Source: Elusimicrobiota bacterium
GTDB lineage: Bacteria; Elusimicrobiota; Elusimicrobia; Elusimicrobiales; UBA9959
DNA length: 61,066 bases
Direction: 5' to 3'
Assembly (NCBI GenBank): GCA_027340875.1
Contig: DAIENX010000104.1
Coordinates: 1-61,066 of the forward strand
The first letter of the stretch is position 1. Each line of letters opens with the position of its first letter. Of this stretch, positions 11,696 to 61,066 are shown piece by piece. The position numbers and the translations under genes are program-made. Below the pieces are notes generated by a model. The model saw only the letters and a program-made list of their open reading frames with translations, was not told where the DNA came from and did not search any database.

Positions 11696-11696
11696 T

Positions 11697-36173: not shown

Positions 36174-39100
36174 ATGAAAAAGGCCGTTTGGGCAGGGACT
36201 TGCTTTGCTTTCTTTTCGGGTGCCGCAATGGGAGCCGTACCTGCGGGGGTGGGCTTCACCTCGGCTTCTACCGACTCTGTCTCGCTGGCCTGGAGCCTGG
36301 ATACCCCCGGCACGGAAACCCCTTGGGTGGCTTTTTCCTACGACCCGGCCTTTTCCGTTACTTTAGCCAGCGCAGCGCTTACGCTGGGGCAACAGACCAC
36401 GGCTTATTACGGGCTTTCCTCGAACATGAGCTACTATTTCAAGGTCAAGGTCTCCACCGACCCCGATCCCGCCGGCTACTGCGCCACGGTCTCCACCGTC
36501 ACGCCGCCCGGCGCTCCATCGTCGTTCGCGGTCACGGACCTCGGCATCAGCAGCGTCACGGCGGGATGGGGGCAGGGGAATAACGCGCCGGGAACCGAGT
36601 ACTGGACCGAGCTGGCCAGGGACGACTCGTTCGCGCTCTACTCGCTTTCCAGCGGTACCGCCGTTTCCGCTCTCTACTCCGGCCTTGTCCCCAACTCCAC
36701 TTATTTCGTCCGGGTCAGGACCGTGGGGGTCGGCGGCCAGGACAGCGGCTTCGTCGAGCTGTCCACCATAACCTTCTCCTATCCTCCGGGTTCGGAGGCC
36801 TACGCGCTGGTCTCATCCACCACACTGTCAGTCATCTGGGACGACAACGGCAATCCGGCCGGCACGCGCTACGAGATAACGGAATCCACCGACGCCTTTG
36901 CCACCGCCAATTATTCCACGGTCACGCCCGGCGGCTGGTTCGAGGCCTCGTCGCTGCGTCCCAACACCACCTATTACTACCGCGCGGCCGCCTACGGCTG
37001 GGGCGGGGCGTATTCCGGCATAACGACCTTCGGTTCCACCATGACCTATGCCGCGCCGCCGGCCCCCAATCCTCCCGGTCTCGGCGTTCCCGACGCCACC
37101 TCGGTACAGACCCAGTGGTCCGCCAACGGGAACCCTAACTTCACCGAGTACTACGTGCAGGTCAGCAGCTCCGCCGACTTCTACGGCGACGACTACGGCC
37201 CCAAGGCCTGGTTCAACGGCCCGGCCTATAACGTTACGGGGCTGGAATCCGGCAGGCTTTATTATTTCCGCGTCGGCGCAAGGGACACGATAGGCAGGCC
37301 CAGCGGCTGGCTGGGCCTGGGTTCGGCCGCCACGCAGGCCGGGGCGGACAATACGCCTCCCTCGGTGACGGACCTGCAGGGGGGGGACGACAACTGGCGC
37401 GGCTCGGCCAGCGGGGCCTACATGGTCCATTTCTCCGACCTGGGCTCGGGCCTGGACCGTTTCCAGGTGAAGGTCACTACCGGCCCGTCCTTCAGCGGCA
37501 CGACCGTGGCCGACTGGACCGACGCGGTGACAGGAATAAATTCGGACAGCTATGCCCAGGATTGGGTGCTGCCGGCGCCGGTGTTCGGCGCGATCCAGGA
37601 GGCGGTAACGAGCTACGTATCGGTGAGGGTGTACGACAAGTCCGCGAACAGCACGGTGTATCCGGACGCTTTTTACGTCCTGCGGGACACCTCCCCGCCG
37701 ACCATAACGAACAATGCCGCGTCGCCGGCTGGTTGGCTGGCCGCGGACCCGGGAAGCGTGTTCGACGTGGACGCGGCCGACGCTCTTTCCGGACTGGGCC
37801 AGCTGCTCTACAGCGCCAGCGCGAGCGCCGGCGCAGCGGACGGCGGCGTGCTCGGTTGGACGGCGGTTCCGGGCTTCTCCACCGGCCCGGTATATACCGC
37901 TCTGTGGGGGGTGGATTTCACGTCGCTCAAGGACGGCGTCACGAATTACATAAGCGTCCGCGCCATCGATAAGGCCGGAAATCCCGTCACGCTGGCCGAC
38001 GCCTTCAGGATACTGAAGAACACTGTCGGCCCGGCGATGTCGATAATCACGCCTTCCACCGCCTATGTTTCCACGGTATCCGCGGTTTCCGGGGCCGCCG
38101 CCGGCATGACGGAAAGCAGCCCGCCTACCGGGAGCCAGGTCTCGCTGCAGGAACTGACGGGAAACTTGTATTTCGACGGCGCCTCCTTTTCCTCCGTCTC
38201 TCAGGTCTGGCTGGAAGCCCAGGGGCTGACCTCCTGGTCTTATAACGCGTCGACCGTGCCTTTCTCCGCCGGCACGCAGTATAAGCTCTCCGCGCGGGCT
38301 CGGGACGGCTCCGGCCGTATCACCGCTCTGCCGTATCCGTCGGTCACGTTCAGCCTCGACCAGGTCCCGCCTACGGTCTGGCTGTCTACCCCGCTGGCCG
38401 GCACGACGGTCTACGCGCTGGACGCCGTGGGGGGAACAGCCGCGGACGCCGGCGGCGCCGGCCTGGCCGAGGTCGATATCTACATGCGGCGCGTCTCTGA
38501 CGGCAAGTGGTGGAACTTCGTGTCAGCGGACTGGGACACGGTGCAGGTGGCCAGCGCGGTCCCCGCCGGAGCTTCCTGGACGTTCACCCCGGGTACGGCC
38601 CTGCGGGGCGCGCTGGCCAACGCGCAGCAGTACTTCGTGGCCGCGTTGGCCAGGGACGCGGCCGGGCCGCCGAACGCCTCCTCGTTCGGCATGGCCGGCT
38701 CCACGTTCACGTGGCTGGACACCGTGCCGCCGGAGGCCGTCGCCGACTTCGCCCCGTCCACCGGGACGTCGCCCGGCCGCATAAGGGTCTCCTGGACCTT
38801 CCCCGGGGACGACGGCGGCCTGCTCGCCCTTACCTACGGCCAGTTCGCCATACAGTACTCCACCGACCCTGCGGTCGTCTTCGCCACGCGGTCCGCCCAG
38901 GTGCTGATCTCCACGGCCATGGTGCGGCCCGGATCCGCCCAGGCCTATACCTTGTCCGGCCTCACCCCGGAGACGACTTATTACCTGCGCATGTGGGTGA
39001 AGGACGACGCCGACCTCTGGTCCTCCGCCTCGCCGCTGTCAGGCACGCTGTCGGGCGACCGCCTGAACGATATGATAGCCGGCACCATAAAGACGCCTGC

Positions 39101-39890
39101 CGGCGCAGGCGTCACCGGGGTCATAGTGGACGCGGTCTCTTCCGACGGGATCATCGTCGCCACCGCTTATTCCCTGGACGACGGACTCGGCTCTTTCACG
39201 CTGAGCCCGCTGCCGGACGGGCTCTACCGTGTGCAGGCCACCTGGACGGAGCATGGCTTCGCCAGCTCTATAGCGAAGGACCTGGTGCCGATGGGCTACG
39301 CCGACGCCAATTTCGAGCTTTCCATCGACTACGCGCTGGCCAGCGTCTCCGGCGTGCTGCCGGCCGCCGTACCGGCGGCCATCGGTCCGTCCTCGGTTTC
39401 CGGCGGCGAGGCCCAGCTCTGGCGCGGCACCCGGCTGCTGGCCAGGACCTACGCGGACGCGGCCGGCCGTTTCACCATACGCAACCTCATACCCGGGGCT
39501 TATACCCTTCGCGCGAGGGCCGGCGGCGGCGCCTGGAAGTCCCTGGACATACAGCTCGCTCCGGGACAGGACCTGCAGGTGAAGCCTCTCGGCGTCATTC
39601 TGGCCAGGGGGGCGGTCTACGCCTATCCGAACCCTGCCTCCTCCAAGGTGACCTTCCACGTCGAGAGCGGCGTCTACCCGGTGAGGGTCCGGATCTCGGT
39701 CTTCTCGCTCGACGGCTCGCTGGTCAGGACGGCCGAGGGGGCCATTTCAGGCTCTGCTCCGTACGAATACACCTGGAACTTCTCCGGGAACGCGCCGGCC
39801 AGCGGGATATATTTCTACACGGTGAGGATAGAGGACGACCTTGGCGGCGAGACGGCCGTCTCTTCGCGCAAGTTCGCGGTGATACGATGA
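36174..39890 (+). CDS. Secreted FN3/Ig-repeat protein with T9SS-like C-terminal sorting domain (cargo A)
   Basis: Signal peptide; GLxPNxTYY FN3 repeats; AYPNP...FSLDGSLVR...ASGIYFY...RKFAVIR; TATAAT at 36158. Confidence 0.85.
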   Translation: MKKAVWAGTCFAFFSGAAMGAVPAGVGFTSASTDSVSLAWSLDTPGTETPWVAFSYDPAFSVTLASAALTLGQQTTAYYGLSSNMSYYFKVKVSTDPDPAGYCATVSTVTPPGAPSSFAVTDLGISSVTAGWGQGNNAPGTEYWTELARDDSFALYSLSSGTAVSALYSGLVPNSTYFVRVRTVGVGGQDSGFVELSTITFSYPPGSEAYALVSSTTLSVIWDDNGNPAGTRYEITESTDAFATANYSTVTPGGWFEASSLRPNTTYYYRAAAYGWGGAYSGITTFGSTMTYAAPPAPNPPGLGVPDATSVQTQWSANGNPNFTEYYVQVSSSADFYGDDYGPKAWFNGPAYNVTGLESGRLYYFRVGARDTIGRPSGWLGLGSAATQAGADNTPPSVTDLQGGDDNWRGSASGAYMVHFSDLGSGLDRFQVKVTTGPSFSGTTVADWTDAVTGINSDSYAQDWVLPAPVFGAIQEAVTSYVSVRVYDKSANSTVYPDAFYVLRDTSPPTITNNAASPAGWLAADPGSVFDVDAADALSGLGQLLYSASASAGAADGGVLGWTAVPGFSTGPVYTALWGVDFTSLKDGVTNYISVRAIDKAGNPVTLADAFRILKNTVGPAMSIITPSTAYVSTVSAVSGAAAGMTESSPPTGSQVSLQELTGNLYFDGASFSSVSQVWLEAQGLTSWSYNASTVPFSAGTQYKLSARARDGSGRITALPYPSVTFSLDQVPPTVWLSTPLAGTTVYALDAVGGTAADAGGAGLAEVDIYMRRVSDGKWWNFVSADWDTVQVASAVPAGASWTFTPGTALRGALANAQQYFVAALARDAAGPPNASSFGMAGSTFTWLDTVPPEAVADFAPSTGTSPGRIRVSWTFPGDDGGLLALTYGQFAIQYSTDPAVVFATRSAQVLISTAMVRPGSAQAYTLSGLTPETTYYLRMWVKDDADLWSSASPLSGTLSGDRLNDMIAGTIKTPAGAGVTGVIVDAVSSDGIIVATAYSLDDGLGSFTLSPLPDGLYRVQATWTEHGFASSIAKDLVPMGYADANFELSIDYALASVSGVLPAAVPAAIGPSSVSGGEAQLWRGTRLLARTYADAAGRFTIRNLIPGAYTLRARAGGGAWKSLDIQLAPGQDLQVKPLGVILARGAVYAYPNPASSKVTFHVESGVYPVRVRISVFSLDGSLVRTAEGAISGSAPYEYTWNFSGNAPASGIYFYTVRIEDDLGGETAVSSRKFAVIR

Positions 39891-39901
39891 GGCATAAGGA
39901 T

Positions 39902-41635
39902 ATGAAGAAATTCCATCTAATAGCCGTTTCCCTGCTGCTGCCGGCGGCTGCCGCGGCCCAGAACCTGGTCGGAACAGGGGCATCGGTCCATGACTCCGCC
40001 GGGACCTTGCGCGAGACGTTCACCAGCGGAGAGACCATAACTCTGCGGCAGGGCGTCAACGTCCTGGCTACCGACACCTCCAGCGTGCAGTTCAAGTTCG
40101 AGATACTCAACCCGGCCGGCACCGTGGTGTTCACCCATACCGGCAACGCGGCGCCAGGCACCGCCGGAGGCGCCCAGAGCCAGCTGGCGGGCATCTCGGT
40201 CAATTCCTTCTATTCCTCGCCCGGCGACTATACTTTCAGGGGAACGGCCACGCAGACCCCGTACACCCCGGTGGTGCAGACCACTAGCTTCCTGATCTCT
40301 TCCCCTAACATAACCCTGATCTATCCGCCGTACGGCGCCCGCGGCCTTTCCGACGACCCGCTCACCTTCCGCTGGACGGCCAGCGGCGCCAGCAAATACC
40401 GCGTCACGGTGGCCGATAACGCGGGTCTCTACAACGAGCTGCACTCGGCGGTCAACTCAGGGACGAACTATTACAGCTACCCGCAGAACCCCACGCGGCC
40501 GCGCGAACAGCTGGTCCCGGACCAGGTCTACTACTGGAAGGTGGAGGGCCTGGACGGCAGCAATAACAAGATCTCCGAGAGCAACGTCTACAACTTTTCG
40601 CTGAAGGGCCAGGCCTCGGCCCAGACGCGCAACGTCGCCGTCACCAGGCTGGACCTCTCCTCTCCCATGTCCTACACCAACCCGGTCAGCTTCCGGGTGA
40701 CGCTCAGCAATACCGGCTCCGCCACGGAATCCAACATCTCGGTCAAGTTCTCGCTGGGCGGCGTTGCCTCGCAGGACTCTCCCAAGCAGGTGGCCTCGAT
40801 AGGGCCATCCGAGCAGACGGACCTGACCTTCACGGCCTTCATGCCGGCGGGACAGGATCAGGCGCTGGCCGTGGCCTGCGCTGACCTCTTCGACGACAAC
40901 ATGCCTGATAACTGCAAGACCAGGCTGCTCGCCCCGGACGCCACGACCTCGGCCCCCGCCGGCCCGGGCAGGAAGCTCAGCTACGACGAGATGTTCCAGG
41001 CCATACTGCAGCGCCTGGGGCCGGACGCGGCGAAAGCGCTGGAAGGCTACACCTTCGAGAGTCTCTCGTGCCCGGACTGCACGCAGGACGAACTGACGCA
41101 GGTCGTCGCCGCCCTTATCAGCGGCGACGCGCAGCTGGTGAGCGCTTCGGTCACGGACACCGGCGGTCCGGCGGAAGCCGCTACTACGGACGCCGCGGCC
41201 GCGGCCGCGTCCGAGACCCAGGACAGCGAGAGCCTCGAGCTGGCGGAGGAACCGTCCATAGACATGTCTTCGCTGGCGGAGAAGGTCCCCGGTGAGTGGA
41301 GCGGCTACACCGACTTCCGCGGCAAGCAGGCCTCCACTTTCGTTATACGCGGCGTAAAGGAATGGCGCAAGCTCTGGAACTCCCTGTCCGAGGAGGCGGT
41401 GCCGGACCTGGACTTCGCCTCTTCGATGGTGGTGGGCGTGATCTCCGGCTCCGAGGACAGGGCGGCGGCCGTGCGCCTGCTGGGCAGCCGCAAGACGGAT
41501 GACGGGATAGCTTTCGATTACTATCAGATAGAGGCGGCGCGCGGGGCGGAGGTCCCCACGGCGGCCTATATCTTCCGCGTTTTCAAGCGCTCTGACGAGA
41601 AGGCCTCCTTTGCGAGGCTGGACGTCAAACGCTGA
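39902..41635 (+). CDS. Secreted Ig/FN3 + CARDB-like + PrcB-C-like protein
   Basis: True start MKKFHLIAV after AAGGA; QVYYWKVEG; VTLSNTG...DDNMPDN; CPDC; FVIRGVKEWRKLW...VPDLDF...VVGV resembles PrcB C-terminal domain. Confidence 0.75.
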   Translation: MKKFHLIAVSLLLPAAAAAQNLVGTGASVHDSAGTLRETFTSGETITLRQGVNVLATDTSSVQFKFEILNPAGTVVFTHTGNAAPGTAGGAQSQLAGISVNSFYSSPGDYTFRGTATQTPYTPVVQTTSFLISSPNITLIYPPYGARGLSDDPLTFRWTASGASKYRVTVADNAGLYNELHSAVNSGTNYYSYPQNPTRPREQLVPDQVYYWKVEGLDGSNNKISESNVYNFSLKGQASAQTRNVAVTRLDLSSPMSYTNPVSFRVTLSNTGSATESNISVKFSLGGVASQDSPKQVASIGPSEQTDLTFTAFMPAGQDQALAVACADLFDDNMPDNCKTRLLAPDATTSAPAGPGRKLSYDEMFQAILQRLGPDAAKALEGYTFESLSCPDCTQDELTQVVAALISGDAQLVSASVTDTGGPAEAATTDAAAAAASETQDSESLELAEEPSIDMSSLAEKVPGEWSGYTDFRGKQASTFVIRGVKEWRKLWNSLSEEAVPDLDFASSMVVGVISGSEDRAAAVRLLGSRKTDDGIAFDYYQIEAARGAEVPTAAYIFRVFKRSDEKASFARLDVKR

Positions 41636-41675
41636 CGCGCGGCTTTGGTTGAACGAGATGGTGAAGGGAGGAGTT

Positions 41676-42410
41676 ATGAACAGGAAGATGAAGTTCGCGG
41701 CGGCGGCAGCGGCGCTTATCGCCGGCGGCCTTGCGGGCTGGGGGCTGACCGCCTCCTGCGCGCCCCAGGTGGCGGCGGTGGCCGTGTATATCGACGGCGA
41801 AGTGCAGGTCAAGCGGGCGGGCGAGGCCGCTTATTCGGAGCTCAAGGTCAACGACATGCTTTACGGCGGCGACAACATAAAGACCGGCAAGGGCGCGAAG
41901 GCCGGGCTCGTGACCAAGGGCGGCGCGGAGGTGCGCCTGAACGAGAGCTCGGAGTTCGAGATCTCCAAGGGCGGGAAGCTGCGCGAGATGCTGAAGCTCT
42001 CGTTCGGCCAGCTCTGGACCAGGATGCTGCATAAGATGGCCAAGATCAACGTGCGTACGCCTTCCGCGGTCTGCGCGGTGCGCGGCACCGAGGCCGATAT
42101 AGAGCAGAGGAGCCTCCTGACCGTGAAGGTCTACGAGGGGCACGTGGACGTGCAGAACTCGCTGGGCAAGCAGTCCTTGCGCGCCGGCCAGATGACCACC
42201 GTGACCGGGCCTAACGCCGCCCCGGAGGCAGCCAAGAAGATGTCCGGGCAGGACGCCGGGAAATGGCAGGAAGGGGTGAAGGTCAGCGACTATGACAAGT
42301 TCATCAACCTTCTCAAGGAGAGCGCCGATTCGGGCAAGACGCTGAAGACCAGCGTGCGCATGCCGGACGGCAGCGTGAAGCAGATAGAGGGCGGCCTGAA
42401 GAAGAAGTGA
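41676..42410 (+). CDS. FecR-domain exported protein
   Basis: GEVQVKR, GDNIKTG, VRLNESS, TPSAVCAVRGT, VKVYEGHVDV, LRAGQ; GGAGGAG SD. Confidence 0.85.
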   Translation: MNRKMKFAAAAAALIAGGLAGWGLTASCAPQVAAVAVYIDGEVQVKRAGEAAYSELKVNDMLYGGDNIKTGKGAKAGLVTKGGAEVRLNESSEFEISKGGKLREMLKLSFGQLWTRMLHKMAKINVRTPSAVCAVRGTEADIEQRSLLTVKVYEGHVDVQNSLGKQSLRAGQMTTVTGPNAAPEAAKKMSGQDAGKWQEGVKVSDYDKFINLLKESADSGKTLKTSVRMPDGSVKQIEGGLKKK

Positions 42411-42444
42411 GAGCGACACTGACAGGTCACGACGCGGAGGAGAT

Positions 42445-43374
42445 ATGAGACCGGGAATACTATTCGCCGTATTGCTGCTGTCGCGCGCGGCGCCTTGCGC
42501 CGCCGCGGGCAGTTCGGCGGCGCAGTTCCTCAGCCTCGGTTTCGGGGCCAGGGCGCTGGGGATGGGGGAGGCGTATACTGCGGTCTCGGACGACATATCC
42601 TGCGTCTATTATAACCCGGCCGGCCTGGCGGCGGGGCAGGAAGGCCGGCAGCTGGCCTTCTCCCACGCTTTCCACCTGGAGGGCACGTCGGTGTCCCAGG
42701 CGGCGTATATGAAGCGCCCCTACGCGGCGGCGGTCACGTACTTCTCCGCCGGGGACCTGGAGGGGCGCGACGCGTCGGCGAACCCGACCGGGGATTTCAC
42801 CGCCAGGGACGTCGCCGCGCAATACTCCCGGGGCTTCCGCCTGGGACCGCTCGCTGCAGGCGCCACCGGTAAGCTGATAAGCCAGCGCATCAAGTCCAGC
42901 GGGGCCACGTCGTTAGCGGCGGACCTGGGGCTGCTGTACCGGCTGGAGGGCACGCCGTACTCGTTCGGCGCCGCGGTCACCAACCTGGGGACCAGGGTGA
43001 AGTTCGAGGAGGAGAGTTTCCCGCTGCCGCTCAAGCTGAAGGCGGGCGCGGCGGCCTCTTTCGCCGGCCCGCGCCTGCTGCTGGCGCTGGACGGGGAGTT
43101 CCCGAACGACGGCCCGGCCGCGCTGCGCGCCGGGGCGGAATACCGGGGGCTGGAAGGGATAGCGCTCAGGCTCGGCTGGCGGACCACGGCTTCCGGCCAG
43201 CGCGACGCGGTACTGGGCCGCGGCTTCGGGGACGACGTCTCCGGGGTAGCCGGGATGTACGGTTTCTTCGCCGGGGCGGGCTTCGCGTACGCCGGTTTCA
43301 CGCTGGACTACGCTCTGCTCCCCTATGGCGACCTGGGGACCGCTCACCGCTTTTCGGTGGGGATGAAGTTCTGA
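42445..43374 (+). CDS. PorV/PorQ-like outer-membrane beta-barrel (paralog 2)
   Basis: QFLSLGFGARALGMGEA, YYNPAGL, DYALLPYGDLGTAHRFSVGMKF with terminal Phe. Confidence 0.85.
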   Translation: MRPGILFAVLLLSRAAPCAAAGSSAAQFLSLGFGARALGMGEAYTAVSDDISCVYYNPAGLAAGQEGRQLAFSHAFHLEGTSVSQAAYMKRPYAAAVTYFSAGDLEGRDASANPTGDFTARDVAAQYSRGFRLGPLAAGATGKLISQRIKSSGATSLAADLGLLYRLEGTPYSFGAAVTNLGTRVKFEEESFPLPLKLKAGAAASFAGPRLLLALDGEFPNDGPAALRAGAEYRGLEGIALRLGWRTTASGQRDAVLGRGFGDDVSGVAGMYGFFAGAGFAYAGFTLDYALLPYGDLGTAHRFSVGMKF

Positions 43375-43376
43375 GA

Positions 43377-43471
43377 CGGTCCCATGCGCGGGCATGGGAC
43401 CGCCGACCCCGCCGGAGCGTTGAGGCAAGCGCGGGAGCGTCGCAAGGCGCCGCCGGGATTGCCTGAACGCT
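43377..43471 (+). other. Two stem-loops in the leader of the giant fibre gene
   Basis: cggtcccatgc-gcgg-gcatgggaccg (43377-43402); agcgtt-g-aggcaa...gcgtc-GCAA-ggcgc...ttgcct-g-aacgct (43416-43471). Confidence 0.55.
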
Positions 43472-43512
43472 ATGCGTGAAAGAACGTTGATGATCCGCTC
43501 ATGGAGGCGGTT

Positions 43513-49500: not shown

Positions 49501-51279
49501 GTAGCCGGAGGCGAGCATAACGCCGTCTACGACTTCTACGGCTTCATCGGCTCGGGCGTGAGCAACGTTATAGCCTCCAGCTATTCGGTGGTCGCCGGCG
49601 GAGCGTCGAACATGACGTACGGCGTCTACTCCGCTGTCGGCGGCGGCTTCAGCAACACGGCCAACAGCGGCTATAACACCATAGCCGGCGGCGCCGGGAA
49701 TACCGTGAATAACCAGTACGGCGCGATAGGCGGCGGCATGAACAACGCCGCGGGCGAATACGGGTTCGTCGGCGGCGGCTACGGGAATCAGGCCAGTAAT
49801 GTCCATGCGGCCGTGGCCGGCGGCTGGAACAACATCGCCGGAGGAATGGACGCGTTCGTCGGGGGCGGGCAGGGGAACCAGACCACCAGCAACTATTCCG
49901 TGATCGCCGGCGGCGTTTCCAACTTCATGAGCGCGACCGATCCGTACGCCGTTATCGGCGGCGGCTATGGCAACAACATTACCGGCAGCGGCCTGTATGC
50001 CGTGATCGGTGGCGGATCGAAGAACCAGGCTAACATGCCTTACTCGGCCGTCCTGTCCGGCTCCACCAATACAGCCATGGGGCAGTACTCGGTGGTGGCC
50101 GGCGGCTGGTGGAATACCGCCGGCGCATGGGGCACTACCATCGGCGGAGGTATTTTCAACAATGTCAACGTAGGCTCTTACGCGACCATAGCCGGCGGCT
50201 CCACCAATACTGCCAGCGGTTTCGGCTCGTTCATAGGCGCCGGAGAGCTCAACCAGGCCTCCGGCAATTATGCGGTGATCCCCGGAGGATATATGAACGC
50301 GGCCAATGGCACGTATTCTTTCTCTGCGGGATATAAATCCACCGCGGCCGCCAGCGGTAGCTTCAGCTGGGCCGATGGCACAGGAACGGGAATAGTGAAC
50401 AGCGGCATGAACCAGGTGATGTTCAAAGCGGCCGGCGGCTTCTGGGTGTCGACTTCCACGCTATATTACACCACGGGCCTTTACGTGAGCACCAGCAATA
50501 CGGTCAACATCGGGACTGTTGATTCTACGCGCGCCGACTTGTCGCTGTGGATCAATAAGGGCAGCGGGATGAACACGTTCCTGCTGGGCAATGACACTAC
50601 GAAAGGACTTAAGATACGGGACACGGGGACACTGATAGATCTGGATTCTCAGGGGGTGGACCTGATGTTCAACTCCAGCGGCAAGAACGCCTATTTCTAC
50701 CAGGGCAAGGTCGGAGTAGGCGTTACCACCGCCCTGGCCGGCTCGAAGATGGCGATAAACGAGCCCAGCCCGAATCTTACGGACCCGTACGTCCTGAAGG
50801 TCGGCACCGGCACTTCGCCCGAGATGTTGACGGTCTCAACCACGGGTGTTGTAAGCATGCCGCGCCAGTCCATGGCGCGGGCTTATGCTCCGGCTGCCGG
50901 CAGTTATGTGAGCGCGGCCTGGTCCTGGGTGACCATGAGCGCCAGCTACGAGGATAATCTCCTGGAGTACGATACGCTCAATTCGTACTTCACCTCGAAG
51001 TATGGCGGGCTTTATATGGTCTCGGCGCACGTCACTTTCGCCGCGTCCACTATGGGAACGGTGCGCGGCATAGGCCTGGGCCTTAACGGCGCGGTTCCGA
51101 ATCCTGAGGCGCGGGATGTGCGGCGGGCCGTCTCAAGCGCGACCGATGCCGATGACATGAACCTCACCAGAATAATGCGCATTCCGCCGGGACAGTTCGT
51201 CCGGTTGTTCGTCTACCAGGATACGGGCGCCAATCTTGGCGTGGCGACCGCGACCATGGACGTGGTGAAGCTGAACTAG
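43513..51279 (+). CDS. Giant (~2590 aa) mosaic tail-fibre-like adhesin with beta-helix repeats and C1q-like tip
   Basis: Signal peptide then MTYQGRL...NGSY; repeated FVGDGSGLTGV...KVLKAGDTMTG; many VGIGT motifs; ~14-aa YATVGGGxxNxA repeats; C-terminal EYD...FTSKYGGLYMVSAHVTF; GGAGG SD. Confidence 0.85.
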   Translation: MKKLILSIFLLACWAASPSAAEIMTYQGRLKDGPLPANGSYSFSFDFCSDGTGSGAGCQSAGPAQSFSVANGLFRSTFTLPAVNLSAGPWYLRVTVNSSPLIPLERLTFVPYSVFSSSAGYAYSASTLTALSGPAVFASTHVVVRGELTAADWTVDPSTYAVVQGAALLKDLTPGTQDVRVGVSGHVISATSDSSDIMAGGNFEAEIPSGKNGIMIGVRAGINNSGSSPQATALFIDGVNNTGTIADTYGVYISTLYSGTQPNKPFAIYSIDRAARTYIAGNVGISSVPAYALVVSSASGDVMWVSSYAVHGQKFVGDGSGLTGVTGATGTDNTKVFKTGDTMTGQLTVAGSTLTVIAPGSLSNSGVLWAGTSTVVPMLFVSTKGYVGVGTSSPMYPLHVIERSGQVAVLIEGYDSSYDSLYIDSKGTGNPLIGLEKAGLLKSSMYVDASDNYVLAMSGAGKMTVTQSGNVGVGTSAPVYQLHVNGGLFAVSSVTTQGFVNAGSYQINGSTVLRVLPGSSSLAVGDRAGLSDAGNYNIFVGSAAGKGHGSGDNNTMLGYGAGFSNTVGSGNTFLGSTAGMNNTTGGNNIVIGALQNTSAPNSSNEINIGGLLFGRMDTAGIGVSTRNPQAALDVVSTGAVSNVYAQIWRDSTGNIISSMSASGAFEAVRFVGDGSGLTGVTGATGTDSTKVLKAGDTMTGPLTMAGSTLTVTGNAFSVGGGTLAVINGRVGIGTSSPASAFHVLVTDNSNLNFANYGGNLVFNTVPQAFAKTIFNNNATGKISFMVDSNEILVVSTPTRVGIGTDVPLYRLHVSSGAGESGTMMAVSTGTTDLFWVAGDGAHAVKFVGDGSGLTGVTGATGTDATKVLKAGDTMTGQLTLAGSTLTVTGGAFSVGGSTLAVYSGKVGIGTVLPSVELHVKNTYGRAFLESAAGNTAWLGLGQNANAYWMLTNNPTGGNWLSFNNLGNTPQLVIQQAGNVGIGDTSPMARLHVEETSALAQYALIVSTNADAASYRLAVSTSGSLGVRAFPPAAALDVAAEGSGASDYVQLWRNSAGVIIASVTDNGTLYGNGSGLTGISASGLTSAGDILVNSTGGNTRIQTGGTDIATFLPAGTLQVNTANTAGAVKEALRLGNPGAGNTTGASLTFYNNGPTWEQAGIAGFYDNPTNSNTLAFYTGNGHTERMRITGSGFVGIATGTPQGLFQVGGGTFTVLSSGTVGIGTEAPVARLDIYAPNTVSYMEIHNASNLNRKVARISQFANNGLLDVFDINEGVVVRLNADKTSPSYINAGYLGIGTTAPKARLDVQETDTVNMNYSLRASTSDTSYHLVVTTGGWVGINQKAPHSTLHIVGDSKNAGVMMEQSAEISDSAFLALSKSRGAPGAEAMVLAGDHLGLLGFAGYNGNSGDPYPLAAALLASVDGAPSAVSMPARLDFMTAPAGTLTPLTRMTINAKGDVGISTGTPAARLDVLAAGSTLLDYAQIWRDSAGVVKASVTATGVFYGDGSGLQNVTASGNVLKSGDTMSGQLTLYNSTLTVGGNVFSVGGSTLVVNAGRVGVNWTSPEAALEVNGGAKFLLGAGTSYILTAGSALRPDMFFVSSGGLVGIGDFTAAKADTSTVLQLEPRLHDYAAGAEDYALGVSVNARAVSGGLQDVLAAGNFEATVEGPASAAMAIGLRAKIRREIAGVGVVGRAMGVFVDQLQNDTGGGITNTYGIYIATQTGGAQTNRPYSIYAEDTNAYNYFGGYVGISSAVPVAALVISSAPGSSGPMLLVSTGASVVFGVKGNGEVYASGRFIGDGSGLINVTGTDATKVLKAGDAMTGPLSINSDVATKSADLLTTGIIISTGGAMQTTGIGHGTVAGSARGTGAVDLQTSRLAAGQAATGDYSVIGGGIGNTASGYASVVSGGQQNSAGASNSYATVGGGVGNSASATYATVGGGTSNKASGFFSVVAGGQSNTVYAANSAAAGGFNNVVSSSNSFSGGGYYNVVAGTSSAVAGGEHNAVYDFYGFIGSGVSNVIASSYSVVAGGASNMTYGVYSAVGGGFSNTANSGYNTIAGGAGNTVNNQYGAIGGGMNNAAGEYGFVGGGYGNQASNVHAAVAGGWNNIAGGMDAFVGGGQGNQTTSNYSVIAGGVSNFMSATDPYAVIGGGYGNNITGSGLYAVIGGGSKNQANMPYSAVLSGSTNTAMGQYSVVAGGWWNTAGAWGTTIGGGIFNNVNVGSYATIAGGSTNTASGFGSFIGAGELNQASGNYAVIPGGYMNAANGTYSFSAGYKSTAAASGSFSWADGTGTGIVNSGMNQVMFKAAGGFWVSTSTLYYTTGLYVSTSNTVNIGTVDSTRADLSLWINKGSGMNTFLLGNDTTKGLKIRDTGTLIDLDSQGVDLMFNSSGKNAYFYQGKVGVGVTTALAGSKMAINEPSPNLTDPYVLKVGTGTSPEMLTVSTTGVVSMPRQSMARAYAPAAGSYVSAAWSWVTMSASYEDNLLEYDTLNSYFTSKYGGLYMVSAHVTFAASTMGTVRGIGLGLNGAVPNPEARDVRRAVSSATDADDMNLTRIMRIPPGQFVRLFVYQDTGANLGVATATMDVVKLN

Positions 51280-51305
51280 CGGAGGAAAGCCGGCTCTAAG
51301 GACCG

Positions 51306-54300
51306 ATGAGACAGATATTCGCGGCCGCCATGGCGGTGTGCCTGCTGCCCGCACAGGCGGCGGCCGCAAAAACAGCGGGGAACCTCGCCGTCCTGGGCGA
51401 CGCGGCGGACTATTCGTCTGCCAGCTCCAGCCAGGCCGGTGCCGCCTTTTCCATGGCCGGAGGCCTTTCCTCCGTGGCCAACGACATCACGAGCGACGGC
51501 GCTAATCTTAAGCTCGAATCCGGCTTCTATTCGCGCCTGGTCGTAGGACAATCCGCTTTCGGCTACTATCCGCAGGGCACCAGCAGCGTGACGCTGAGCT
51601 GGACGGCCGCCAATCCTAACGGCACCACTTACGACCTGTTCGTCTCGACCTGGCAGGAGGCCGACCCCTACATGGCCTATTATTCCACCGACGCGGCCGG
51701 CTACCCGGTGGAATCCCTTGCTCCGAACACCAGTTACTATGTCTTCTCCGTGGCGAACTACATGGAGGGCGACTACTCCGCCCCGGCCGCCACTACGACG
51801 GTTACGCTGGCCGGGGTCCCATCCACGGGCGCTTTCACTCTCGCCGACGCGGGGCACGACACGCTCGCGCTCTCTTTTACCGGGCCGGGGAACAGCCCGC
51901 CCCTGCCCCTGCGGCCTTGGTTCCAGTATTCAGCTGGCCTCCCGAGACCGCTTTACGGCCAATCCTCGGTGGTATATGCCACGCATGTCTATCTGAGCGG
52001 CGGCTTCGACGGCGTGTATTTCTCCAGCGCCGTTTACCGCGCCGAGCTGCTGGCCGACGGCTCCCTCGGCGCGTGGGAGACCGCGGCCTATATGCCGGAG
52101 GGGCTGTACGGCCATCAGGCGGTCGCGGCCAGGGGCCGGCTCTTCGTGCTGGGGGGGTACTCTTCCTCCGGGGCGCGCAGGGAGGTCTGGTCGACCGATA
52201 TCTCGAGCGCAGGCTCCCTGGGCGCCTGGGAGCCGGAGACGCCGCTGCCAGACCCCATGTATTTCCACGCGGCAGCCCTGGTGGGCGACAAGATCTACGT
52301 TTCCGGAGGATACAAGAGCGGCTCGGGCGTTCTGGCCGGCTTTAGCTTCGCGGAGCTGGGCGCGGACGCCTCGCTCGGCGCCTGGGATACTTCCAACACC
52401 ATGCCGGCCCCGCGCTACGCGCATTCTATGACCCTGTTCCCGGGCATGCTGGTGATCGCCGGCGGCAAGGACGGGGCTTCGGCCAGGGCGGAGACCTGGT
52501 CCTGCCCCGTCAGCACGGGAGGATTCCTGTCTCCGCCCTGCGCGCCGTGGACCCCGCTGCCTGGCGCGCGCTACGGCCACTCCGCCGTGGCCGAAGGGAC
52601 GAGGTTCTATATCGTCGGCGGCAACAACGGCTATGCCGCGATGCAGCAGGTGTACCAGACCACCATTCCCGCTGCCGGGCTGCCGCAATGGGGCGCCGCC
52701 GCCGCTCTGCCCGCTCCGGTGCAGTTCTCTTCGCCGCTGCTGGGGAGCGGCGGTCTCTATCTCTTCGGCGGTTCCTCGGGTTCGTCAGCGCTGTCGTCCG
52801 TATATGCCTCCAGCATCACGGGTACCGAGTACGCTCTCCAGGCTTCCCCGGACCCTACCTTCAGCGGCGTCCCGCTGACCTCCAAATGGTCCCCGAACCC
52901 CGGCGCGTCCTTCAGCGGCCTGGCCCCGCTGACGCAGTACTATTTCCGCGCTAAGGCCAGGAACTGGACGGGCGTGGAGACGGATTATTCCCCGGTCGGC
53001 TCCACCTTCACCTATGCCGCCATCCCCGCCACCGCGTCCTATACCGGCGTCGGGATAAATACCGCGGTGGCGAACTGGGCGGCTAACGGCAACCCCGCCG
53101 GCACCAATTACCAGCTCAATGTCTCGACTTCCCCGGATTTCTATCCTGAGTACGGATCATATACCACGAACACTTTCCTTACCCTGAGCGGTCTGCTCCA
53201 GAGCACCACTTACTACAGCCGGGTGCGGGTCTTCTCCGCGACCCCTCTTTCCCGCTTCGCGGTGCTGCCGCCGGTAAAGACCAGCTACGATCCGGCCCTG
53301 GACGTGGACAGTCCCACGATCGTCAACGGCCAGAGCCCCGGCGACTACGCCTATTGGATAGCCACCAATACCTTCCTCAGCAGCGCTACCTTCACCGACG
53401 TAGGGGCATCCGGTATAAGTTATTTCGAACTTCAGGTATCCACCAAGCTGGGCGACCCTGCCAGCGCGACTACCGGCTGGCTGCCGGCCGTATCCGGCAT
53501 AAACCAGCCCTCCTACAGCGCCCCGTGGACGCTGCCGCAGTCCGCCTGGGACGCTATGCTCGACGGCGCATCCAGCTATGTCTCGGTGCGGGTTTACGAT
53601 AACTCCGGGAATTACTCCGCCTTGCGCGACATCTTCAGCGTGCTGAAGGACAGCACGCCTCCGGTCATCGGCGTTCCCTATGCCGCCGTCGCGCCTACCG
53701 GCTGGCTGACCGACAACCCGGGGAAAGTGACGGACCTGCGCTTCGACGATCCTCTTTCCGGGCTCGCCAAAGTGCAGTACAGCGTGAGCCGCGACAAGCT
53801 GTTCGCCGACGGCTCCGTTATCCCGTGGACCGATATGGACCTGACCAACTCCACGGCCGCGCTCGCTCACGGCGCTACCTGGTACCAGACCGACCTGAGC
53901 TACAGCTTCAACGCGCTGGCCAACGCCGCTTCCAACTATTTCAGCTTCAGGGCGGTGGACGTAGCCGGCTCGACCTATACTTTCAAGGACGCTTTCGGCA
54001 TAGCCAAGAACGTGAGCGGCCCTACCGTGGCGATATCGACCCCGGCCGGCGCGTATCTCTCCACGTTCACCGTGGTCTCCGGCAACACCGCCGAGACGAA
54101 CGCGCACCCGGTCCTGGGGACAGAGATCTCGCTGCGCGACCTGGACACCGGGCTGTATTTCAACGGCGTCACTTTCCTGTCCGGCTCGCAGTACTGGCTG
54201 GACGCGGCCGACCAGGGCAGCACGTTCACGCTGACGCTGCAGAACCCTCCGCTCATCAGCGGGCGCCATTATCAGGCCGTTGCCCGCTCTTCCGATTCCG

Positions 54301-55919
54301 CGGGGGACTACTCGCAGCTGTTCGCCACGCATACCTTCACCTTCGACACGACGCCGCCGTCCGCCGGAGTGATCTATCCCGCCGCCGGTTCCACTGTCGG
54401 CACCGTCGGCCGCATCAGCGGCACGGCTTCGGACGCCTCCTCGCCGCTCTATTCCTCCGAAGTGGTGCTGCGCCGCCTCAGCGACGGCAGGTGGTGGAAG
54501 AACGATACTTCGTCCTGGGACCTGTCCCCGCAGGCCCTGCAGGCCGGCACCACCCCCTATTGGACCTGGAATTTCCAGCCTTACCTGCGCGACTCGCTGA
54601 CGAGCGGCGCCTCGTATTACGCCAGCGTCAGGGCCACCGACGGGGCTTACCCGCGCAACGTAGGCGCTTTCTTCGCGGCCGGTTCCACCTTCACGTACCT
54701 GGACGATACGGCTCCGCCGCCCACCCTTACCCTGGGCGCGGCGCCGGGGGCCTACAGCGGCTCTGTCGCCCTCACCTGGCGGACATCAGGGGATAATGCC
54801 TACAACGGTTACCTCCTCTCCGGCACGTACAAGATCGCCTATTCCACGTACACCGGCGCGGCCGTCTCGACACAGACTGCCCAGGTGACGATCGCCACGG
54901 CCACCCTCACTGCCGGCGCGACCCAGCAGCGGATGATCAACGGCCTGGACCCCGCGGTCACCTATTACTTCACGCTCTGGACCGCGGACGACGCCCAGAA
55001 CTGGTCCGCCGCCTCGCCGCAAGCGCAGGCGGTCTCCGGCGCCCCCGGCAGCGGCTCGCTGGGCGGCAGGGTGCTGGACGCTTCCACGCAGCCGGTCACC
55101 GGCGTGCTGGTCGAGGCCATCGGACCGACGGGCGCGGTGGAGGGCAGCGACTATACGGATACCTTCGGCCGCTACTCCATACCGGCGCTGGACCCGCTTT
55201 ACCTCACTGTCCGCGCCGTCTGGACGGCGGAGGACATCGAGAGCTCCGTCACCAAGGATTCGGTGCCCAACGGCTCGTCCAGCGTGGATTTCAGGCTCAG
55301 CGTGACCTATCAACTGGCCGCGATAACCGGCGTGATCCCGTCCAACTACCTGGCCTCCTCGGCGGCGCCCAGGCCTTCCTCCGCGCGCTACACCACGCGC
55401 GAGGCGGGCTCCTCTCGCGGCGACGCGCCGTTCGTGGAGCTTTACAGCCACGGCCGCCGCATAGGCGCGGCCTTCACGGACACGGCCGGGGCCTTCCGCG
55501 TGGACAACCTGCTGCCTGGGACTTACGGCCTGCGGGTCTTCAACGGCGAGTATTTCAGCGAGATGGCCACGGTCCGGCTCTATCCCGGCCAGCAGCTGGT
55601 CTTCACCCCCAAGTTCGAGCTGCTCGACAAGAGCGGGGTCTACGCGTATCCCAATCCGGCCCGCACCGCGGTCAACTTCCGCTTCGCGCCTTCGGCCGTC
55701 TCCTTCCGCGCCCAGGTGCAGGTGTTCGATATAGCCGGCACCCTTATAAGGACGCTGGACAATGTCTCGCCGGACACCGTGGCCGGCGGCAGGAAGATCT
55801 CGTGGGACCTGGCCGCCGACAGGGTAGCCCCCGGAGTGTACCTCTACATACTGCGCGTGCAGGACGCCTCGACCGGGGCCGCGGCGAAGGTGGTCAAGAA
55901 ATTCGCGGTAATCAGATAA
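51306..55919 (+). CDS. Secreted Kelch + FN3/Ig protein with T9SS-like C-terminal sorting domain (cargo B, paralog of 36174-39890)
   Basis: Six Kelch repeats (YLSGGF, FVLGGY, YVSGGY, VIAGGK, YIVGGN, YLFGGS); AYPNP...FDIAGTLIR...APGVYLY...KKFAVIR. Confidence 0.87.
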   Translation: MRQIFAAAMAVCLLPAQAAAAKTAGNLAVLGDAADYSSASSSQAGAAFSMAGGLSSVANDITSDGANLKLESGFYSRLVVGQSAFGYYPQGTSSVTLSWTAANPNGTTYDLFVSTWQEADPYMAYYSTDAAGYPVESLAPNTSYYVFSVANYMEGDYSAPAATTTVTLAGVPSTGAFTLADAGHDTLALSFTGPGNSPPLPLRPWFQYSAGLPRPLYGQSSVVYATHVYLSGGFDGVYFSSAVYRAELLADGSLGAWETAAYMPEGLYGHQAVAARGRLFVLGGYSSSGARREVWSTDISSAGSLGAWEPETPLPDPMYFHAAALVGDKIYVSGGYKSGSGVLAGFSFAELGADASLGAWDTSNTMPAPRYAHSMTLFPGMLVIAGGKDGASARAETWSCPVSTGGFLSPPCAPWTPLPGARYGHSAVAEGTRFYIVGGNNGYAAMQQVYQTTIPAAGLPQWGAAAALPAPVQFSSPLLGSGGLYLFGGSSGSSALSSVYASSITGTEYALQASPDPTFSGVPLTSKWSPNPGASFSGLAPLTQYYFRAKARNWTGVETDYSPVGSTFTYAAIPATASYTGVGINTAVANWAANGNPAGTNYQLNVSTSPDFYPEYGSYTTNTFLTLSGLLQSTTYYSRVRVFSATPLSRFAVLPPVKTSYDPALDVDSPTIVNGQSPGDYAYWIATNTFLSSATFTDVGASGISYFELQVSTKLGDPASATTGWLPAVSGINQPSYSAPWTLPQSAWDAMLDGASSYVSVRVYDNSGNYSALRDIFSVLKDSTPPVIGVPYAAVAPTGWLTDNPGKVTDLRFDDPLSGLAKVQYSVSRDKLFADGSVIPWTDMDLTNSTAALAHGATWYQTDLSYSFNALANAASNYFSFRAVDVAGSTYTFKDAFGIAKNVSGPTVAISTPAGAYLSTFTVVSGNTAETNAHPVLGTEISLRDLDTGLYFNGVTFLSGSQYWLDAADQGSTFTLTLQNPPLISGRHYQAVARSSDSAGDYSQLFATHTFTFDTTPPSAGVIYPAAGSTVGTVGRISGTASDASSPLYSSEVVLRRLSDGRWWKNDTSSWDLSPQALQAGTTPYWTWNFQPYLRDSLTSGASYYASVRATDGAYPRNVGAFFAAGSTFTYLDDTAPPPTLTLGAAPGAYSGSVALTWRTSGDNAYNGYLLSGTYKIAYSTYTGAAVSTQTAQVTIATATLTAGATQQRMINGLDPAVTYYFTLWTADDAQNWSAASPQAQAVSGAPGSGSLGGRVLDASTQPVTGVLVEAIGPTGAVEGSDYTDTFGRYSIPALDPLYLTVRAVWTAEDIESSVTKDSVPNGSSSVDFRLSVTYQLAAITGVIPSNYLASSAAPRPSSARYTTREAGSSRGDAPFVELYSHGRRIGAAFTDTAGAFRVDNLLPGTYGLRVFNGEYFSEMATVRLYPGQQLVFTPKFELLDKSGVYAYPNPARTAVNFRFAPSAVSFRAQVQVFDIAGTLIRTLDNVSPDTVAGGRKISWDLAADRVAPGVYLYILRVQDASTGAAAKVVKKFAVIR

Positions 55920-55953
55920 ATTCAAAAAACATATAATAGGGTTTCGCTACAAC

Positions 55954-57873
55954 ATGATAAAGAACAGGACACTACTCCCTCTGCTGCTGCTCCTGGCCGT
56001 GCCGGCCGCCAGCGCTTCCGCGCAGGACACTGCCAGCCTGCAGTTCACCGTGGCCGCCCCGGACCCGGTGATGGCGGGGGAGGAGGTGCGGCTGCAGACC
56101 CTGGTCGTCAATACCGGGACCACCGTCTGGAAGCGGGGCACGTATTACTGGGTGGGGGAGCTGTACGTGCTGGACGGAGACCAGAAGCGGTTCCTGGCCC
56201 AGACGGAGACCCAGTCGCCGGAAGAGGACGTTCAGCCGGGCGCGGCGCAGGGAACCCAGCTGCCCTTCCTCGTCCCGGACAACATGCCCGGACACCGCCT
56301 GCTCTACCGCGTCTTCCTGATCAAGGACGGCCGGCGCATACTGGAGACGGACTACCGCGGCTTCCAGGTCATAGAGAAGGAACTGCGTCCGACGGTGCCG
56401 CAGGATTTCAAGATAGGCGGCGACGTCTCGTTCACCTACAAGAACTCGAGCCGCGACTCCTGGACCAGCCACCAGGGGATAACGGCCGCGAACCTCGTCG
56501 GCAGGATACGACAATCCTCGTTCCTCTTCAACACCTATATCGTCCATACCTACCACAGGCCGATAACGCCGTCGATAGTCTTGCTGAACTACTACGCGCC
56601 GTGGGGCAACCTGGCCGTCGGGGACATCTCTCCCACGCTCACGCCGCTCTCCCTCGACGGGCAGGGCATGCGCGGCGTCTCGTTCGACAGGGCCCGCGGC
56701 AAATATTCGCTGACGGCTCTGATAGGCAGGATAGTGGCCCCGCTGGAGCCGGGGCCGAACAGCGGCGGCCGCTACGCGCGCTATACCGGCGGCTTCAAGT
56801 TAGGCTGGCAGTTCAGGCCTAACCTCAAGGTGGCCGCGGACGCCGTGGTCAGCCGCGACGACCTGCATTCGATAAACATCACCACTACCGCGCTGACGAT
56901 AACTCCGCAGCAGTCCATAGTCTACGGCCTCAACGCCGACTGGGCGTTCCTGCCCGGTTTTGCGGTCAACAGCGACTACCAGATGAGCTCGTACCGGGCG
57001 GACCTCAGGGCCTCCGAGCCCGGAGTGGGAGGCAGCGCGTGGAAGCAGGAGCTGAAGTACAAGGCGAACCTGTTGACGGCTAGGGCGGCCATTTCGCGCG
57101 TGGACCCGAAGTTCTACTCCTTCGCCAGCCCGTCCGTGATCTCGGACCGGCAGACCGTGGAAGGAGAGGTCGGCATCTTCCCCGCGGACTGGACCAGCTT
57201 CACCCTGGCCTACAACGGCTATTCGGACAACCTGGATTCGGACCCGGCCAAGACCACCACGGACCAGGCGCAGACCACGTTCGCCAACATGCTGCGACTC
57301 TTCGGCAAGACCATCGTCAATACTTCGCTGATGACGAATACCACCAAGGGCAAGCCCGCCGGGGTGCAGGACAGCCAGACCACGACCACAAACGTCTCCG
57401 TCACCCAGCCATTGGGCGTGCATACGCTGAGCGCGGCCGTCCAGCAGAGCGACTTCAAGGACAAGACCGGTCTCTCTCATGACCTTTCCACCTCGCTTCT
57501 CTCTCTGAATGGGGCCTTCAAGTTTACCCGGCGCCTCTCGATGTCGGCCGGTATGGTGAACTCCTCCACCAAGGACAAGGCGGATTCCACCACCGGCACC
57601 AACACCAGCGTGACCGGCAACGTTTCCTACGCGATTCCCAGGCGCTCGATGGCCGTGCAATGCTGGGCCACCATGACCTCCTATAAGAACGATTCGCTGC
57701 TGACCCCGGCCGACAACGGCTCCCTGTCCCTCAACGTGGAGACGGTCTGGGTGAAGAGCCAGAGTTCCCGCTTCACGTTCGGTGTGGGCAGCGTTTCGAG
57801 TACGGATAAGCTGAACAAGGGCAATGATACGTCCGAGATCACGGTCCTCACCAGGTATAACTACTCCTTCTGA
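55954..57873 (+). CDS. Outer-membrane beta-barrel protein with N-terminal Ig-like domain
   Basis: Signal peptide; VNTGTTVW...VQPG Ig-like start; alternating amphipathic strands; C-terminal TRYNYSF BAM-type signal; TATAAT at 55932. Confidence 0.78.
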   Translation: MIKNRTLLPLLLLLAVPAASASAQDTASLQFTVAAPDPVMAGEEVRLQTLVVNTGTTVWKRGTYYWVGELYVLDGDQKRFLAQTETQSPEEDVQPGAAQGTQLPFLVPDNMPGHRLLYRVFLIKDGRRILETDYRGFQVIEKELRPTVPQDFKIGGDVSFTYKNSSRDSWTSHQGITAANLVGRIRQSSFLFNTYIVHTYHRPITPSIVLLNYYAPWGNLAVGDISPTLTPLSLDGQGMRGVSFDRARGKYSLTALIGRIVAPLEPGPNSGGRYARYTGGFKLGWQFRPNLKVAADAVVSRDDLHSINITTTALTITPQQSIVYGLNADWAFLPGFAVNSDYQMSSYRADLRASEPGVGGSAWKQELKYKANLLTARAAISRVDPKFYSFASPSVISDRQTVEGEVGIFPADWTSFTLAYNGYSDNLDSDPAKTTTDQAQTTFANMLRLFGKTIVNTSLMTNTTKGKPAGVQDSQTTTTNVSVTQPLGVHTLSAAVQQSDFKDKTGLSHDLSTSLLSLNGAFKFTRRLSMSAGMVNSSTKDKADSTTGTNTSVTGNVSYAIPRRSMAVQCWATMTSYKNDSLLTPADNGSLSLNVETVWVKSQSSRFTFGVGSVSSTDKLNKGNDTSEITVLTRYNYSF

Positions 57874-57879
57874 TGGGCC

Positions 57880-57921
57880 CAAAACGAAAGGACCGTGCTG
57901 GCGCACGGTCCTTTCGTTTTG
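57880..57921. terminator. Bidirectional intrinsic terminator
   Basis: caaaacgaaaggaccgtgc-tggc-gcacggtcctttcgttttg, perfect 19-bp stem between convergent operons. Confidence 0.88.
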
Positions 57922-57933
57922 CATGCCTGCAGG

Positions 57934-60133: not shown

Positions 60134-60164
60134 CAGTAGTCCGCCGCCCCGGCGGGGCGGGGGA

Positions 60165-60941: not shown

Positions 60942-60961
60942 GTTATTTCATCTCCTGTTTC

Positions 60962-61066
60962 TCAGGGCTTCGGAGCGTTCGGGGCCGGCGCCTTCGGCGC
61001 GGCGGCAGCCGGCGCCGGCTTGGGCGCCGGGGCCGGCCCGGGGCTTATGCCGGCGGCGGGGCGCGG
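60962..61066 (-). CDS. Pro/Ala-rich C-terminus of a gene truncated by the window edge
   Basis: Minus strand reads PRPAAGISPGPAPAPKPAPAAAAPKAPAPNAPKP then stop, 20 nt upstream of the MotA-like start. Confidence 0.6.
   Translation of the reverse strand, partial: PRPAAGISPGPAPAPKPAPAAAAPKAPAPNAPKP

Follow-up and report, generated by a model that had tools for sequence, protein, structure and literature searches.

The described systems closest to the locus considered here are the T9SS (type IX secretion system), the flagellar motor, and the gliding machineries GldLM-GldKN-SprB and Agl-Glt. In T9SS cargo whose C-terminal domain (CTD) is of type B, the cargo gene adjoins the gene of its own PorP/SprF barrel. 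The Agl-Glt system has unlike B subunits, AglQ and AglS, which parallel the MotB/MotB' pair described below. A natural fusion of FliF and FliG occurs in Chlorobium tepidum, which our literature search did not confirm. T9SS genes are reported to be absent outside the Fibrobacteres-Chlorobi-Bacteroidetes (FCB) phyla (PMC11285876), the GldLM and AglRQS motors have been likened to MotAB (PMC13104615), and engineered FliF-FliG fusions support motility (PMC7355467); these and the other papers cited are represented here by their accessible parts. For Elusimicrobiota, Uzun et al. (10.1101/2022.07.08.499144) describe orphan motAB, flbD and fliG genes without flagellar structural genes, the role of which is called enigmatic. 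The present analysis concerns a 61,066-nucleotide stretch of DNA from an Elusimicrobiota bacterium (contig DAIENX010000104.1, assembly GCA_027340875.1; hereafter the window), which carries a cluster of seven genes for candidate surface and outer-membrane proteins and, facing it across a terminator, an operon for flagellar-type motor proteins.

At the gene level, a fused rotor from a bacterium in which no FlhA, flagellin or rod gene was found is tied to a reduced T9SS. The gene architecture is new: a one-chain FliF-FliG rotor with its stators, and without an export gate, lies beside T9SS genes. The motor part fits no system met in the literature searched. The source genome (G000; 2.8 Mb, 92% complete, 5.5% contaminated) was compared with a phylum sample of 151 genomes, and the genomes that went into the sequence profiles overlap. 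The host belongs to the Elusimicrobiota by its named relatives and by Atlas clusters, as an earlier note on this DNA had supposed. The genes and hairpins of the two operons are as follows.

36174..39890, + strand: CTD cargo A, 1238 aa, with fn3/CarboxypepD repeats and a type-A CTD; conserved core
39887..41635, + strand: CARDB/Ig protein without a CTD; conserved core
41658..42410, + strand: FecR-domain protein (start codon 41658 or 41676); conserved core
42445..43374, + strand: barrel of the PorV/PorQ family (about 20 paralogues in the genome, this one included); variable insert
43377..43402, no strand: 11-bp perfect hairpin between the PorV-like gene and the fibre gene
43501..51279, + strand: repeat-containing fibre-like protein, 2592 aa, no CTD; variable insert
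51306..55919, + strand: CTD cargo B with Kelch and fn3 domains, paralogue of cargo A; variable insert
55954..57873, + strand: Ig domain followed by a 26-strand outer-membrane barrel; belongs to the conserved core and is linked to the motor operon
57880..57921, no strand: perfect 19-bp hairpin terminator separating the convergent operons
57934..58824, - strand: TPR protein that starts like a signal peptide and resembles, at about 35%, the TPR tails found in PorV-TPR fusions
58821..59468, - strand: MotB', with plug and OmpA domain, channel Asp present
59465..60133, - strand: MotB, with plug and OmpA domain, channel Asp present
60165..60941, - strand: MotA of the flagellar-stator type (MotA/MotC/PomA models, E 5e-55, below the equivalog cut-offs)
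60962..61066, - strand: likely 3' end of the gene encoding the FliF-FliG fusion; the main part of that gene lies at the end of contig C98 (L046:2959-4387)

TolQ matches the window MotA only at E 0.002. The basic and acidic positions of MotA are retained in 12/12 cases, and the channel Asp is found in 138 of 153 motB-profile open reading frames (ORFs), including both MotBs of the window; we take the charged positions and the Asp to have the roles usually assigned to them. The protein encoded before motA in relatives has about 480 aa and combines a C-terminal ring segment of FliF with the middle and C domains of FliG. Its profile matched FliG-MC in the PDB (1lkv, E 1e-54) and, at lower significance, FliF/SpoIIIAG ring domains (9yh6 2e-5, 5wc3 4e-4, 6scn 6e-4; range to 3e-3), and its Pfam domains are concordant with the FliF and FliG matches. 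The fusion has a signal-peptide-like start and, by hydropathy, one internal membrane segment. The Glu of the FliG torque helix is invariant. A periplasmic Pro-Gly is also invariant, in a region that we take to be like the rod-gripping loop of FliF. In the source genome, the end of contig C98 overlaps the end of the window by 13 bases in frame, the join resting mainly on the relatives. Full-length matches to the fusion make up nearly all of the best 150 matches among 50%-identity representatives, and look-ups of ten distant clusters returned Elusimicrobia as the sole name. Look-alike clusters labelled Cloacimonadota, Bdellovibrionota and Bacteroidota were also seen, as a lead only.

The likeness to the flagellar motor consists of the flagellar-type MotA, the plug and Asp of MotB, the FliF ring segments, the middle and C domains of FliG, and FlbD in a second module. 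There are also differences. Rotor and ring form one chain without the N-terminal FliF ring domains, two different MotBs are present, and FlhA, flagellin (PF00669) and rod/hook proteins (PF00460) gave no match in the 92% complete genome, in searches that detected their controls. FlhA was likewise found in 0/28 genomes with the 55954 barrel gene and in 4/151 overall (controls detected), and 52 of the 56 genomes that combine MotA with FliG_C lack it. The assignment of the stators as true flagellar stators was rejected, since no FlhA, flagellin or rod match exists in the source genome.

The barrel gene at 55954 is present in 28/151 genomes, and all 28 carry MotA and FliG_C matches. The motA gene lies on the barrel contig in 21 of them, in 20 cases less than 5 kb away. 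The gene content around motA was counted at the best 80 of 208 motA loci, which belong to close kin and overlap the training set; the 61 loci counted upstream are those with enough flanking room. The fusion gene stands upstream in 61/61, two motB genes and the TPR gene stand downstream in 51/51, and the barrel gene is found in 44/51. Five gene orders occur: the convergent one, to which this genome belongs; barrel then motor; the motor between FecR and barrel (G135); barrel-CARDB-FecR-motor (G001); and motor-cargo-CARDB-FecR-barrel (G071). The genes of the barrel and of the motor are linked. The earlier note had left the motor operon across the terminator, as well as the SprA homologue of this genome, out of its unit.

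That unit, the seven genes together, did not hold up in relatives. Among the 25 of 27 barrel loci beyond the window's own that were inspected, the complete order recurs in one (G054), and six genes are visible in a second (G122). A giant CTD gene, CARDB, FecR and the barrel are clustered in 12 of the inspected loci, and the CARDB gene occurs in 24 genomes, all of them barrel-bearing. The conserved core consists of the giant CTD protein, the CARDB protein, the FecR protein and the Ig-plus-26-strand barrel. The next recognised gene upstream of the barrel at 54 motA loci encodes a CTD protein in 26, FecR in 18 and a PorV-like protein in 2, with none in 8. Because the full order is rare and the upstream neighbours are distributed in this way, the PorV-like, fibre and Kelch cargo genes are variable, lineage-specific inserts. 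The CTD proteins at the position of cargo A in relatives reach 3,465 to more than 4,700 aa, and are fn3-rich where scanned. Contig-edge fragments of further giant relatives of cargo A, up to 3,974 aa, lie on C109, C96 and C12 of the source genome.

Further motor modules are present in the same genome: its motA genes number five and its full fusions four, every fusion lying at most three genes from a PorV-family gene. Of 20 regions examined around other motor loci, 16 have a PorV-TPR fusion immediately before the rotor gene, and one family of CTD genes heads the module in 10; four regions have neither a PorV-TPR gene nor a CTD head. A second module includes an FlbD/SwrD-family gene. Since the TPR protein of the window resembles the tails of the PorV-TPR fusions, the sequence suggests that the TPR protein, barrel and rotor of the window may be the split form of one barrel-TPR-rotor design. 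Two of the motor loci (L049 and L050, on C76 and C111) have genes that look kinase-like by eye, placed after PorV-TPR and ahead of rotor or stator genes, or the reverse. Loci L047 and L048 (C30, C81) are near-duplicate modules of coiled-coil, FlbD, motA, motB and lipoprotein genes, and represent either a real duplication or contamination of the bin. Loci L186-L188 show a third motor type, with the fusion, two unknown genes, motA and motB, and no PorV neighbour.

The seven genes of the cluster are co-oriented, and each product has a signal-peptide-like N-terminus, as judged from sequence by eye and as the earlier note had described. Both cargo proteins exceed the TIGR04183 cut-off at their type-A CTD, and they share about 35% identity across about 1,000 residues. 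Of the "CARDB/PrcB-like" label given to the 39887 product, the CARDB domain was found, while PrcB gave no Pfam match. The FecR domain at 41658 was recovered. The PorV-like label of 42445 stands at family level, the barrel scoring 145.8 bits vs a cut-off of 90 on NF033709 (NCBIfam PorV/PorQ family), and falls short at the level of the PorV and PorQ equivalogs, both cut-offs (NCBIfam) being missed. A PorV-like profile matched PorV in the PDB (6h3i_F, 6e-25). T9SS-type CTDs and a PorV-family barrel thus occur outside Bacteroidota, as had been proposed. The hairpin after the seventh gene (-39.6 kcal/mol, z -7.4), which a simple terminator scan overlooked, bears out the strong terminator named earlier; the picture of a cluster ending at one terminator is complicated by the extra hairpin that splits the PorV-like and fibre genes, so that the cluster may form more than one transcript. 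Scans of the fibre with Pfam, NCBIfam and CTD profiles gave almost no family match and no CTD. A C1q-like tip, guessed by eye, was rejected after finding no Pfam or PDB match. The N-terminal domain of the fibre (window 43576-43899) recurs in three other CTD-less proteins of the genome (C111, C44, C107), and a small CTD gene stands first in each of the clusters to which their genes belong; the domain may act as a signal for anchoring or for piggy-back export.

The 55954 barrel has no sequence match in Pfam, NCBIfam or the PDB. Its predicted structure agrees with the Ig and beta-barrel reading of the earlier note: an Ig domain is followed by 26 strands (pLDDT 87), and the model has no plug within its own sequence. 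The nearest fold is that of MtrB (Z 22.2, root-mean-square deviation (rmsd) 4.5, 457 residues aligned, 12% identity), and many barrels match; the shared fold shows no function, and unlike in the MtrB system the loci inspected showed no gene for a cytochrome. An identity as usher, raised by a motif, was considered but not adopted, FimD ranking 17th by fold (Z 16.1). A complex prediction for the barrel, the periplasmic domain of the fusion and the TPR protein (score 0.06, mark 0.32) is evidence neither way. A distant paralogue of the 26-strand barrel is encoded at C68:4164-5765 of the source genome (E 9e-10).

No SprA or PorKLMN gene is among the window ORFs scanned, which agrees with the earlier note, and genome-wide profile searches found no canonical complete T9SS. 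A SprA homologue of 1,784 aa is encoded elsewhere in the genome (G000:C14:47517-52868(-); TIGR04189 E 1.3e-39, 135 bits, cut-off 200). The conclusion "no SprA", drawn from a miss with PF14349, was rejected, as TIGR04189 detects this homologue. The same model finds homologues in 141/151 genomes, none above its curated cut-off, and a 16-row SprA-like profile matched SprA of F. johnsoniae (6H3I) in three colinear stretches (E 9.8e-44). As this genome and 141/151 carry a divergent SprA, the distinct PorV/CTD-based apparatus that the earlier note had inferred is not a self-contained export system, nor is export free of SprA. The sprA neighbourhood is conserved, with an lptF-like family in 19/20 regions and a comF-like family in 16/20, and all 20 regions inspected lack a match to the fusion profile. 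At this locus (L071, C14:47517-55187 in the source genome) lptF/lptG-like genes run divergently from the sprA-like gene, which in most genomes inspected is followed by comF; this arrangement is also present in families without the motor.

PorV-like genes were found in 142/151 genomes. Profiles made from the source genome's own matches detected 22 ORFs with a CTD and, for the PorV-like family, 20 strong ORFs; another nine PorV-like matches, weaker and partly other barrels, were discarded at E 1e-60. TIGR04183 gave 16 matches in this genome, 13 of them above cut-off. Fifteen of the 20 PorV-like genes adjoin a CTD gene on the same strand, vs about 0.4 expected by gene counts, and the 42445 gene is among the five that do not. 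A second CTD gene of the window, directly followed by a PorV/PorQ-family gene (9122-12737), shows this commonest arrangement of the genome. Profile searches, made without a positive control, gave 0/151 for GldM (PorM) and for GldN (PorN), 0 in the source genome for GldL (PorL), and a single partial GldK match in the source genome (44 vs a cut-off of 350 bits). The C25 peptidase (PorU) gave 0 in the 92% complete source genome and 2/151 in the phylum sample, so that the search is able to detect it; matches of the PorU model on cargo proteins span the CTD alone. Since SprA-like proteins, PorV-like proteins and CTDs are present and the Gld and C25 searches gave these results, a reduced T9SS is the likely route of the CTD proteins; that such a system exists outside the FCB group is well supported. 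It is like the known system in its SprA homologue, its PorV/PorQ-family barrels and its type-A CTDs. It differs in the shorter SprA (about 1,780 aa vs 2,403, below the family cut-off), in the expansion of the PorV family to about 20 genes paired with cargo genes, and in the PorLMN and C25 results given above. The pairing of a cargo gene with its own barrel gene is shared with the type-B PorP/SprF arrangement; the CTDs here match type-A/FlgD-Ig models and the barrels match PorV/PorQ, and no PorP/SprF match appeared. With GldLM-GldKN-SprB and Agl-Glt the bacterium has in common an ion-driven stator-like motor, outer-membrane proteins and large adhesin-like cargo in one cell (PMC13104615). Its motor combines MotAB and a FliG rotor and is neither GldLM nor TolQR-like; a role in motility is putative.

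We propose, with about even chances of being right, that these parts belong to one envelope-spanning machine, in which SprA-like export and a flagellum-derived rotor would move a surface protein at the 26-strand barrel. Sec would carry the CTD proteins over the inner membrane and the SprA-like protein would carry them over the outer one, after which a PorV/PorQ-family barrel would receive them. The CTD is probably retained, because PorU was not found, and the protein would be held by its own barrel, which would explain the pairs of cargo and barrel genes. The fusion protein might oligomerise into a small MS/C-like ring, which MotA5(MotB.MotB') stators would turn by ion flow. Since a paralogous module fuses TPR to a PorV barrel, the periplasmic TPR protein may bridge ring and barrel. 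The wide barrel could serve as a bushing filled by a partner, be it CARDB, FecR or the end of the cargo. The surface element set in motion would be the giant fn3-rich cargo, which would serve capture or motility on surfaces, and the PorV-like barrel, the fibre and the Kelch cargo would be add-on surface passengers in this family. A more specific form of this proposal, for which we think the chances are somewhat unfavourable, is a rotary surface appendage, in which a minimal flagellar motor without type III export would be wired to a T9SS-exported giant polypeptide in the barrel. If true, this would be an analogue of the flagellum, or a gliding engine, made from two unrelated machines and present in several paralogous versions per genome.

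Several observations weigh against the proposed machine. The evidence consists of gene content, domain identity and linkage, from which physical contact, rotation and function are inferred. Gene order is common to kin through descent, and the genomes used to build the profiles overlap. Six other barrels lie near contig ends, where linkage is undecidable, the genes after the barrel of G107 are unrelated ones, and in several genomes barrel and motor have no adjacent cargo. The single SprA-like sequence has no PDB match, is under the TIGR04189 cut-off and is missed by PF14349. FliG_C is matched weakly in this lineage (E 8e-10), and one Arg of the torque helix is Trp in 15/52 sequences. The kinase-like genes within two paralogous motor loci, seen by eye, would fit sensing. 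Finally, two large families (about 89 genomes) have SprA-like and PorV-like genes without MotA (family f2, MotA and FliG 0/45; family f12, MotA 0 and FliG 1 of 44). Because these motor-less families keep both genes, export does not require this motor.

The last observation also speaks against the idea that the motor energises secretion, replacing PorLM/PorKN and pulling the giant CTD proteins through SprA or through the barrel as an exit pore. We consider this unlikely, although PorM and PorN were not found in the 151 genomes, the motor loci adjoin the largest cargo genes and the PorV-TPR fusions, and the barrel model has no plug of its own. GldLM, which powers the T9SS, resembles MotAB (PMC13104615), which would also favour such a role. 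However, no gene matching the fusion profile was found in the 20 sprA regions, and a ring rotor would exceed the needs of a pulling motor. A trans-envelope sensor, which would relay surface load or binding via barrel, FecR and TPR protein to the stator-rotor and to two-component systems with little rotation, appears rather improbable. The FecR-domain gene of the core, the kinase-like and receiver-like genes seen by eye in the C76 and C111 motor loci, the partly degenerate torque helix and the FlbD/SwrD-family gene of the second module would all suit it. Against it, no conserved kinase gene is present in the barrel-linked operon at the loci inspected, and MotA, two Asp-bearing MotBs and the ring domain are all kept.

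We assign a similarly small probability to a further explanation, that the cluster encodes ordinary cargo of a reduced T9SS, while the neighbouring motor serves another job such as type IV pili and is linked by ancestry or shared regulation. The operons are convergent in this class and not co-transcribed, one genome has barrel and motor apart, and twitching or gliding was suggested for the orphan motAB and fliG genes in the accessible text of Uzun et al. (10.1101/2022.07.08.499144). Yet the linkage is kept across five rearrangements, some with cargo, CARDB, FecR, motor and barrel on one strand, and PorV-TPR and CTD genes are tied, independently of this, to a paralogous motor. The single machine with a rotor-driven surface protein remains the reading that we prefer.

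The study of Uzun et al. concerns the same genes in the same phylum, and its accessible text does not mention the FliF fusion or a link to the barrel, PorV or CTD genes. No paper joining Elusimicrobiota, T9SS and PorV was found in the accessible literature; annotation tables elsewhere, in subscription papers and supplements, may list the genes. Nor was one found that joins the FliF-FliG/MotAB module with SprA or PorV in mostly open literature, in the form of abstracts and listings. By term searches of the accessible texts, the link is absent from 10.1101/765248, PMC8542988, PMC12204202, PMC1586193, PMC12505986 and PMC13277936. The findings provide a concrete hypothesis for the enigmatic orphan motAB and fliG genes of Elusimicrobiota. 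The presence of SprA, PorV and CTDs across a non-FCB phylum, apparently without PorLM, PorKN and PorU, makes a minimal T9SS and its energy source testable. With the fusion, the turning of a ring by stators could be studied on a minimal rotor that occurs in nature, and the fusion bears on whether a flagellar motor module can exist without type III secretion.

Short pieces covering window positions 56000-61066 were found in three DNA runs of a single study, and no RNA run was listed as carrying it. Elsewhere in the source genome, loci L052 and L053 (C44, C102) are clusters of FecR-domain genes, a gene for an unknown protein of about 400 aa, and PorV-like and CTD genes. By eye, the cluster at C60:165-3708, which begins with a PorV-like gene, resembles Flp/Tad pilin genes. 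The window itself also encodes a bacterial alpha-2-macroglobulin of 1980 aa at 1543-7485.

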